Made by a program: the position numbers and the translations under genes
NCBI GenBank assembly: GCA_951406725.2
Contig: OX597831.1
Location: forward strand, 49,290,001-49,354,000
Source of the DNA: Octopus vulgaris
Lineage: Eukaryota
Length of the DNA: 64,000 bases
Direction of reading: 5' to 3'
The notes under the pieces: model-generated
Database searches by the model: none
What the model was told of the DNA's origin: nothing
The model's input: only the letters and a program-made list of their open reading frames with translations
Part shown: positions 16,118 to 51,024 of the stretch, in pieces
Position numbering within the stretch: the stretch's first letter is position 1
How the letters are laid out: each line of letters begins with the position of its first letter

Positions 16118-17465
16118 ATTTAGATTCAGTTGAATATGGTACTTAAGTTAAAGGCACCAGAATTTGGTATGGTATTATCCATATAATTCAAAATGGGGTG
16201 ATTATAATCAAAATATGCAACAATGATATCCAAAGGTAATGCAGTACGATCATTTCATGCAACTCCATTTAATTAAACAATGCAAGTAATATATCAGTTT
16301 TTAAATGTAGAGCAATCTTCAGCTGCATATGAATATAGAATTTAGTTAAATTGAAAAGATTCATTTTTATAATTATTCCATTTACCAACAATAACTATAA
16401 AAATGAAACTTTTCAATTTAACTGAATCCTATATTTATATGCAACTGAAGATTGCTCTACATTTTAAAACTGATGTAATACTTGCATTGTTTAATTAAAT
16501 GGAGTCGCATGAAACGATCGTACTGCATTACCTTTGGATATCCTTGTTGCATATTTTAATTATATGTATATATATATACTTTATTTAAAAGCAGCAGGAA
16601 TATAACAAAAGCTGTTACTCAGAATTTCACTAGCATATACTAATTAACCACTTTTCACAGATACCATCTGATGAGTTAGTATTTAAGTGTACAATATGTA
16701 TAAATATTAAACTATTTCTGGATAATATCTTTTCCTTCCTCATTTATGGTAAAAGTTTGGTATATACTCAAAAGTATTCATAAATTTCTATCCTTTTGCT
16801 ATAATATTCTTCTTAATAATCCTCTGAATAACCCTAAACTTTAAACTGTATACAATATAGCAACATTATTTAAAATATTTAACTATAGTACTACATGATA
16901 AGACTTCCCCTGTTTCATTATAAATGGTCTGCTTGTGGGCGACCCTCTTAATTGTCAGCTAGCATCTTGTTTTAAGTTTTCCTTTACCAAGCCTCATGAT
17001 ATTGCGTCTAATAAATCTTGATTTGTTCTCTCAGCGTTAGGTGTAGAAGGATTTGATAAAAAAACTGACCCCATAAAAACAAAAAAAAAATCAGTGACAG
17101 GCAGAGTCTGTAACAATGTATATCTTCTTGATAACTTAGTAACTTCTTTGCTGGAGTGGAGACAGCATGTTCTTTGTCTATCTCCATAACTTCTTGGAGA
17201 CTTTAGGTATAATTATATTAATGTGTCCATCTGTTCTAATTTAATTAAATTCAATGTCTTTGTGCAACTGAGGATTGCTCTGCATTTTAAATTGATGTAA
17301 TGATTGCATTGTTTAATTAAATGGAGTTGCATGAAACGATCGTAATGCATTACCTCTGGATATCCTTGTTGCTTATTTTGATTTTAATCACTTTGAAATC
17401 GTATGGATAATACCGTACTAAATTCTGGTGCCTTAACTTAAGTACCGTATTCATCTGAATCTAAG
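16118..17465. mobile_element. Penelope-type element with ~210-bp inverted terminal repeats and three hammerhead-like copies
   Basis: 16118-16329 is the reverse complement of 17263-17465, and a third copy at about 16388-16563 folds back on the first. Motifs CTGAAGA/CTGAGGA...GAAAC-GATC-GTA; (TA)n on both sides. Confidence 0.65.
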
Positions 17466-20656: not shown

Positions 20657-21023
20657 ATATATAAATTAGAGAAAAAACACTATTATGCAATTCAAACAAT
20701 GATAGACATAAACCAAATCATAAATAAAAATTAAAATATATATTTTTTTAGAAACATATAACTAGATCACAAAAAATATAAAAGTGAATAGTCAATATAT
20801 AATAAGTAATAAGTAATACTCATTACTTATACTTTTTGTGATTTAGTTATATGTTTTTTAAAAATATATATTTTATTTTATATTTATGATTTGGTTTATG
20901 TCTATTATTCTATGAATTGCATAATAGTGTTTTTTCTCTAATTTATATATTATATATTTATGTTGTGAAATTTGATTTAATACTAAATTGAATTTTTCCC
21001 TGTAAGTTTGGAGTTATACTCCG

Positions 21024-21026
<3 letters not shown>
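20657..21026. repeat. AT-rich inverted repeat plus tail between (TA)n tracts
   Basis: Imperfect arms of ~120 bp at 20657-20777 and 20830-20950, followed by a ~75-bp unique tail. Confidence 0.75.
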
Positions 21027-24021: not shown

Positions 24022-24200
24022 TATATAATTATAACAATAAGGGTTTTGCAACAAGTTGCTTGTTGCCAAACCCTTATTGTTATAATTATATACAAGAAAA
24101 CGTTTTGTATAAGTTTTTACCGAATATGGCCCTTTTTCATACCGAAAAACTACTAGGTGAAATTTGACGATTTTATTAAATTAATTATCTTTCACCCTAT
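24022..24200. repeat. near-perfect palindrome plus tail between (TA)n tracts
   Basis: 34-bp arms at 24022-24055 and 24059-24092 with one mismatch and a 3-nt loop, followed by a ~110-bp tail. Confidence 0.8.
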
Positions 24201-50557: not shown

Positions 50558-50706
50558 ATATATAAATGCATATATATTATATATATATGTATATATATAT
50601 TACATATGCATGTATATATATATATGCATTCAAGTATGATTAATATATATTTATGTATGTAAATATATATATATTATATTATACATATATATATGTATAT
50701 ATATAT

Positions 50707-50883
50707 ATTTATTATATAGAAGGAGCTTCTGAAGACGTGTTCCGGCGCCCGGCGGCGCGACGCCGAGCGAACGGCGACGCGGCCGCGCGGGAGCGAGGCG
50801 ACACACACGGCCCGACCGTTCGCTCGGCGTCGCGCCGCCGGGCGCCGGAACACGTCTTCAGAAGCTCCTTCTATATAATAAAT
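50707..50883. other. perfect GC-rich inverted repeat (68-bp arms, 41-nt loop)
   Basis: 50707-50774 is the exact reverse complement of 50816-50883; 50736-50854 is 97/119 G+C by hand count. Confidence 0.97.
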
Positions 50884-50952
50884 TAATTTTACTCTGCTAT
50901 GTATTGAGTACCTTATTTACTGTGGTTAACCCCGAATCAACCCGGGACCTAC

Positions 50953-51024
<72 letters not shown>

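Follow-up and report, generated by a model that had tools for sequence, protein, structure and literature searches.

Host 28S rRNA joined to a Penelope-like element at its predicted hammerhead cut in a perfect hairpin of Octopus vulgaris

The 64,000-nt stretch of Octopus vulgaris contig OX597831.1 analysed here (the window, from whose first base all positions are counted unless another contig is named) contains a long perfect hairpin embedded in a (TA)n microsatellite. We recomputed its geometry and found two arms, 50707–50774 and 50816–50883, that pair over 68 bp with zero mismatches around a 41-nt loop. Between 50736 and 50854 the GC content is 81.5% with 32 CpG; the richest 100-nt segments of the core reach 84% GC and 28 CpG, against maxima of 72% and 18 in the rest of the window, and a run of 77 nt (50742–50818) is free of T. 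The right arm continues into a 69-nt tail (50884–50952) before (TA)n resumes. All of this agrees with an earlier note made from the sequence alone, which had singled out the hairpin, its unique core, the T-free stretch and the tail. In addition, an exact 15-bp direct repeat with a G marker inside the TA run lies on both sides of the insertion on the plus strand, at 50692–50706 within the (TA)n target and at 50953–50967, where it continues into (TA)n. It is likely a target-site duplication, but its low complexity makes it supportive only.

Separate searches with the GC-rich core and with the AT-rich arm and tail, as proposed in that note, led to the host 28S rDNA and to a Penelope-like element (PLE) family, respectively. 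Positions 50730–50818 are 100% identical to a tandem array with a period of ~18.3 kb on contig C20 of the 2.8-Gb host genome, as well as to scattered loci, and Rfam identifies the C20 array as 18S-5.8S-28S rDNA. This 89-nt piece lies on the minus strand, antisense to LSU nt 2575–2663 of 4892 (RF02543), just past a conserved block, where a long expansion region rich in GC begins; the identical 89 nt are present in 11 of the 11 top-scoring loci. Its last 45 nt (LSU 2619–2663) appear again in the opposite direction at 50816–50860 on the plus strand, ending on the same base. The two copies meet at 50816–50818 on three bases common to both, where the rDNA matches stop at query position 112 and restart at 110, and this overlap is either a fold-back or a cDNA-to-cDNA join. 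Among 36 scored candidates, the window alone matches the whole 131-nt core, which leaves a MITE unsupported. Since the core is rRNA and its 89 nt are the same in all the top loci, the restriction-like sites once weighed as a possible synthetic sign are native rDNA, and with the host rDNA match and the Rfam LSU assignment in hand a synthetic, contaminant or vector insert is unsupported. The suggestion of a Penelope-type foldback carrying foreign GC-rich cargo thus holds in outline, as a foldback with captured cargo, but the cargo is not foreign, being 28S rRNA of the host itself.

The last rRNA base is predicted to be unpaired in three of four folds (0.69–0.98), the shortest fold giving 0.26. 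Another 28S pseudogene, L186, stops on the identical base. Ends of 28S pseudogenes fall within 3 nt of nt 2663 at 3 of 22 other loci, one of them on the same base (Poisson p ~0.013 under rough assumptions), a weak hint that a hotspot of such ends may exist there.

Some side observations concern the rDNA itself. The 18S (L022 322–2970, 2,649 nt) and the 28S (L021 3603–8494, ~4,890 nt) are both much longer than their Rfam models (1,831 and 3,401 positions). Beyond the main array, rDNA-like GC-rich stretches occur on C1, C2, C5, C16, C20 and C29, some of them ~100% identical, and represent orphan units or misplaced sequence. At L014 (C2:110712199–110712534) an inverted 28S pair (LSU 2473–2693 / 2464–2790) lies beside (TA)n and also adjoins sequence resembling a different hammerhead-bearing repeat, and at L227 (C14:40.825 Mb) a family copy shows its tail, then (AT)7, then an antisense 28S piece.

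By sequence, the AT-rich arm together with its tail represents the 3′ end of a PLE family that is young and bears marks of the Hydra clade. An exact 35-nt pattern spanning the predicted hammerhead cut recovers at least 3,619 copies, whose usual layout is (TA)n, an antisense arm, a sense arm with tail, and (TA)n. We number the family from +1, the first base 3′ of the predicted cut. The PLE part of the left arm (50707–50729, minus strand) is then antisense of +23 to +1, +23 being the position where internal starts usually lie in this family (22 of the 38 left arms scored). The PLE part of the right arm together with the tail (50861–50952, plus strand) spans +1 through +92, which is what the predicted cleavage would leave as its 3′ product, with 0 differences in 92 positions from the full-length copy L181. 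Both parts of the hairpin are identical to their sources. The earlier description of the hairpin as very recent is right in outline, and the gene conversion offered as its alternative is needless. Perfect arms, in turn, are not exceptional: 3 of 26 scored family copies carry perfect 64-bp arms. Flanking repeats like those of the window insertion occur in L042 and L286 among 16 copies with a G-type marker. In many copies the right arm exceeds the left by far, up to kilobases (L138, L183), which indicates that arms are normally copied from RNA.

In the full-length copy L181, a repeat with the hammerhead and a second repeat enclose a 713-aa ORF and a 3′ region of 2.5 kb rich in microsatellites; hammerhead to hammerhead, this copy measures 4,782 nt. 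Its single ORF combines RT with a C-terminal GIY-YIG domain, as read from the motifs YRDD and LVY..YIG, and has no CCHH. The CxCX5C linker, CxxC and CxH are present in five of five long ORFs, DKT in all four that reach the N-terminus, and RWR stands at the RWK position in L181 and L182. When the L181 protein was compared with Pfam, both as ORF pieces and as the whole ORF, no RT or GIY-YIG model was returned, only weak unrelated matches; relatives at ~40% identity are numerous, some of them labelled PF01541 (GIY-YIG) or PF00078 (RT), and a search for longer homologues of the endonuclease piece found none. According to the available text of Craig et al. 2021 (PMC8557442), Hydra-clade PLEs are marked by RT plus C-terminal GIY-YIG, DKT, the CxCX5C linker, absence of CCHH, CxxC, CxH and RWK, and are generally <3 kb. 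The octopus family shares with them the domain order, DKT, the linker, the lack of CCHH, CxxC and CxH, the hammerhead motif in the pLTR, the (TA)n target, and the inverted truncated copy with a one-sided tail. It differs, the clade being assigned by motifs, in having RWR instead of RWK, in a unit of ~4.8 kb owing to the 2.5-kb 3′ region, in a tail of 69 nt versus 30–40, and, for the window copy, in holding rRNA (PMC8557442).

The family repeat contains the CUGANGA and GAAA core words and a GUA triplet, and its minimum-energy fold is a three-way junction of type I with the cut predicted after GUA. The fold is no more stable than shuffled sequences (z 0.42) and a comparison with Rfam detected no hammerhead in the repeat; the cut is therefore predicted from its core motif. 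Over the whole 64-kb window Rfam gave 0 matches and a strict hammerhead scan found nothing. It is at this predicted cut that the rRNA joins the PLE in both arms, at 50860/50861 on the plus strand and in mirror image at 50729/50730, with an ambiguity of one base because the A at 50860 fits either parent. Three nucleotides beyond the junction the rRNA repeats the first five bases of the PLE, a match that may have guided the join. The window element is a single unit with no intact hammerhead, and tandem hammerhead monomers are absent. The hammerhead core word noticed earlier at 50729–50735 is indeed present, but it is no ribozyme: the junction itself made it out of one PLE base and six rRNA bases, read antisense.

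One candidate scar of ribozyme activity was tried and rejected. The first base after the cut, G+1, is lost in 51 copies compared with 0 and 2 at two control sites, but at a closer control three bases off, G+4, 90 copies show such a loss, and we therefore dropped arm differences at G+1 as evidence. In short-read contigs the G+1 loss is not listed at 1%, a crude measure. Sense-strand losses of single G residues in the family arms amount to 1–2.5% per site at two positions and ~0 at two others, and are likely base-calling errors in hairpins.

When a hammerhead cleaves, the 3′ product carries a 5′-OH and the 5′ product ends in a cyclic phosphate. We propose, with a probability of roughly 0.5, that the hairpin is a young PLE insertion for which the ribozyme cut the element RNA and a host ligase joined a 28S fragment at the cut before reverse transcription. 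The family hammerhead would first cleave the transcript, releasing a 3′ product with a 5′-OH. This end would then be joined to a piece of 28S rRNA whose break lies after LSU nt 2663, probably through an RtcB-type ligase, which requires a 2′,3′-cyclic phosphate. Going by the family's anatomy and published in vitro work with a different PLE, the element's protein would nick both (TA)n strands ~15 nt apart and begin one cDNA at the end of the tail (+92) and another at the internal position +23. Both copies cross one junction and extend 45 and 89 nt into the rRNA with the 3-nt overlap, and the hairpin is perfect because two inverted copies meet there. Since arms are normally RNA-copied and the two copies cross one junction, a pre-joined chimeric RNA is the simplest template. 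In U6/L1 chimeras, RtcB is described as the enzyme that joins ends of this type (Moldovan et al. 2019, PMC6789731), and the accessible part of another report has it circularising hammerhead (retrozyme) products in vitro (PMC7229834). The hairpin is probably a by-product, a functionless accident of retrotransposition. We count against the use of cut RNA that the family's copies, at least 3,619 of them, read through the site intact, so cut-and-rejoined products must be rare or invisible. For the anole Poseidon PLE in vitro, the available text likewise gives uncut RNA as the main template, with no reads ending at the cut (PMC11167929).

We then surveyed copies that depart from the family at or beside the cut, viewing all 69 right-arm rows and 45 of the 51 left-arm rows. 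The right-arm rows comprise 27 microhomology joins in stem I, 27 substitutions or small indels and 15 structural changes (13 loci); they show no overall accumulation of truncations at the cut. Same-direction joins into another RNA segment at the cut occur at ten loci: the window, L101, L364, L084, L073/74, L217/218, L370, L372, L381 and L391. Seven of the ten lead into the element's own downstream sequence (L084 at ~+1970, L073/74 at ~+124, L370 at ~+136, L372 at ~+33, L381 at ~+80, L391 at ~+232) or its own flank (L217/218). They look like what circles would give, several running on as laps. Tandem or second-lap copies restarting at the cut were located at L073/L074 (C15:44.664 Mb), L217/L218 (C6:107.413 Mb; including (AT)20 and 18 nt of flank) and L391 (C8:3.805 Mb).

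The same junction is found in both arms at three loci, namely the window, L101 and L364. L101 combines the 5′ half of a second family's hammerhead with the 3′ half of that of the hairpin's own family, in both arms and with no shared base, and the partner piece ends at the second family's own predicted cut. This second PLE family has 98 pattern matches and aligns to RF02275 with an E-value of 5.9e-5 (26.8 bits, below the gathering score of 52), the aligned cut coinciding with the end of the L101 piece. L101 is the product predicted by cutting plus RtcB-type joining. The locus (L101/L141, C15:30116007–30116089) is the cleanest case among the joins. At L364 the partner is 13–16 nt long in both arms, and the 16-nt piece occurs in neither the rDNA unit nor the element.

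As controls, we viewed rows at five neighbouring positions: in right arms 12 of 12 at −4, 30 of 39 at −3, 27 of 27 at +2 and 48 of 86 at +1, where the remaining 38 are single-base losses, and in left arms 30 of 46 at −3. Together they yielded one doubtful join, L315. The excess of joins at the cut over these controls corresponds to a binomial p of ~0.004, or 0.018 for right arms alone, on rows sorted by eye and post hoc.

The same cut could also have been used with no ligase. It is quite possible, if somewhat less so than ligation, that on reaching the cut 5′ end the reverse transcriptase left its template and jumped end-to-end to the free 3′ end of an rRNA, after which the cDNA turned back on itself over three bases and served as its own template, the tail coming from a second short cDNA. 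Non-LTR reverse transcriptases jump end-to-end with 0–2 paired bases, as far as the available text goes and for R2 rather than a PLE (10.1101/2021.04.30.442027). Short, untemplated-looking fillers are found at the cut in L079, L086, L088 and L094, and the joins to own downstream sequence could stem from jumps just as from circles. In three of the three both-arm cases it is the left arm that extends further, which we count against ligation and which equally fits a fold-back. Against such jumping stand the extra strand exchange needed to attach the tail, the family's right arms, often RNA-copied far past the left arm, and the absence of added bases at the both-arm junctions with a known partner (the window and L101). 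Ligation and jumping alike need a cut RNA, and that one or the other took place is highly probable.

Much less likely, the ribozyme cut played no role: a cDNA left an uncut PLE RNA and re-primed within intact 28S on the five-base match, with a slip of three bases, so that the position at the cut site would be chance. The match lying 3 nt from the junction, the 27 microhomology joins among the 69 right-arm rows and the fact that most copies read through the cut site all speak for this; the required slip counts against it, and it leaves unexplained both L101, exact at two cuts without homology, and the excess of joins at the cut.

Still less probable is an artefact of library or assembly in which a read from rDNA and one from a repeat were fused into a fold-back chimera. 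The single-base G losses in the arms do suggest base errors in hairpins, and independent read support is absent: reads were mapped across the junctions in four independent runs, as the earlier note had advised, and no junction-spanning read or contig emerged, a weak test in which the raw runs were sampled at 3%, with 2 and 16 reads placed and none on the multi-copy rRNA part. Two contig sets showed no bridging contig among those listed, and the junction 21-mer had 0 hits in metagenome contigs, which is uninformative; so young an insertion may be private to the source individual. A read chimera, however, would not reproduce the exact family start (+23) and end (+92), the 15-bp flanking repeat, the junction occurring twice and the sister loci. 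Very improbable is a selected hairpin-RNA locus or MITE, which the predicted RNA fold of −163 kcal/mol, very stable if transcribed, would suit, but for which nothing in the sequence appears to speak: the whole core is found once, both parts are identical to their sources and so left no time for selection on the hairpin, and other samples gave no match (a weak test).

Several known systems resemble parts of the octopus case. In the U6/LINE-1 chimeras attributed to RtcB (PMC6789731), as far as the available text describes them, a cellular RNA likewise lies 5′ of the retroelement RNA in the same direction and is then retrotransposed. In the octopus, however, where the ligation is our proposal, a ribozyme within the element itself would generate the 5′-OH, always at one site; a fragment of rRNA serves as partner, and inverted arms carry the junction twice. 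Microhomology at the join amounts to one shared base in the window, plus the five-base match 3 nt away, and to none in L101. LINE-1/28S chimeras have been described in 18 cases, with 28S fragments of 50–482 nt, mostly sense, for which ligation or template switching is proposed; LINE-1 5′ truncation is variable, and the accessible part of that report mentions no ribozyme-defined junction (10.1101/2025.02.02.635956).

For the anole Poseidon PLE in vitro, the available text of Frangieh et al. 2024 (PMC11167929) describes both strands as nicked and extended, and two RT start sites that bound the tail, comparable to +23/+92 and the 15-nt stagger in the octopus. Cleavage is needless for insertion there, whereas the octopus loci point to a low-frequency use of cut RNA. 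Circularised hammerhead products reinserted as tandems are known from non-LTR retrozymes, in the portions available of two reports (PMC7229834; 10.64898/2026.07.22.740005); L073/74, L217/218 and L391 look like such retrozyme-type laps from the cut, while the window element is non-tandem and lacks a whole hammerhead. Cutting, ligation and circles have been proposed for PLEs, without in vivo evidence in the accessible text (PMC4209133).

The function of PLE hammerheads was called unclear by Craig et al. 2021, in the text available (PMC8557442). Our literature search, which left supplements and most subscription papers outside, found no report of junctions at PLE hammerhead cut sites. Chimeras of rRNA and retroelements are already known from LINE-1; PLE joins at the hammerhead cut appear to be new. 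The cut-site junctions, above all the two-family fusion L101, offer genomic evidence of cut RNA that was sometimes copied, and the window junction is likely a fossil of the ribozyme cutting the element RNA in cells. The value of the hairpin is that of a marker that makes the PLE ribozyme question countable, and the count can be repeated in any PLE-rich assembly. More generally, and tentatively, PLE hammerheads may cut in living cells, with an RtcB-type ligase joining the 3′ product to nearby broken RNA before it is copied into the genome; the partners could plausibly be rRNA fragments, the element's own downstream ends (as circles) or another family's matching ribozyme half. If cutting and ligation do occur in cells, ribozyme activity would be recorded in the genome as fossils, and the cut would act as a fixed point of recombination at which ends are swapped between families and new non-autonomous elements are born.

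Elsewhere in the window, further elements of arm, spacer, arm and tail sit in (TA)n at 620–860, 20657–21025 and 24022–24200, and likely belong to other PLE families. Hammerhead-like core words can be read by eye on the minus strand of the element near 634. An inverted repeat of 175 bp, 93% complementary with a centre of 12 nt, lies at 16203–16564.
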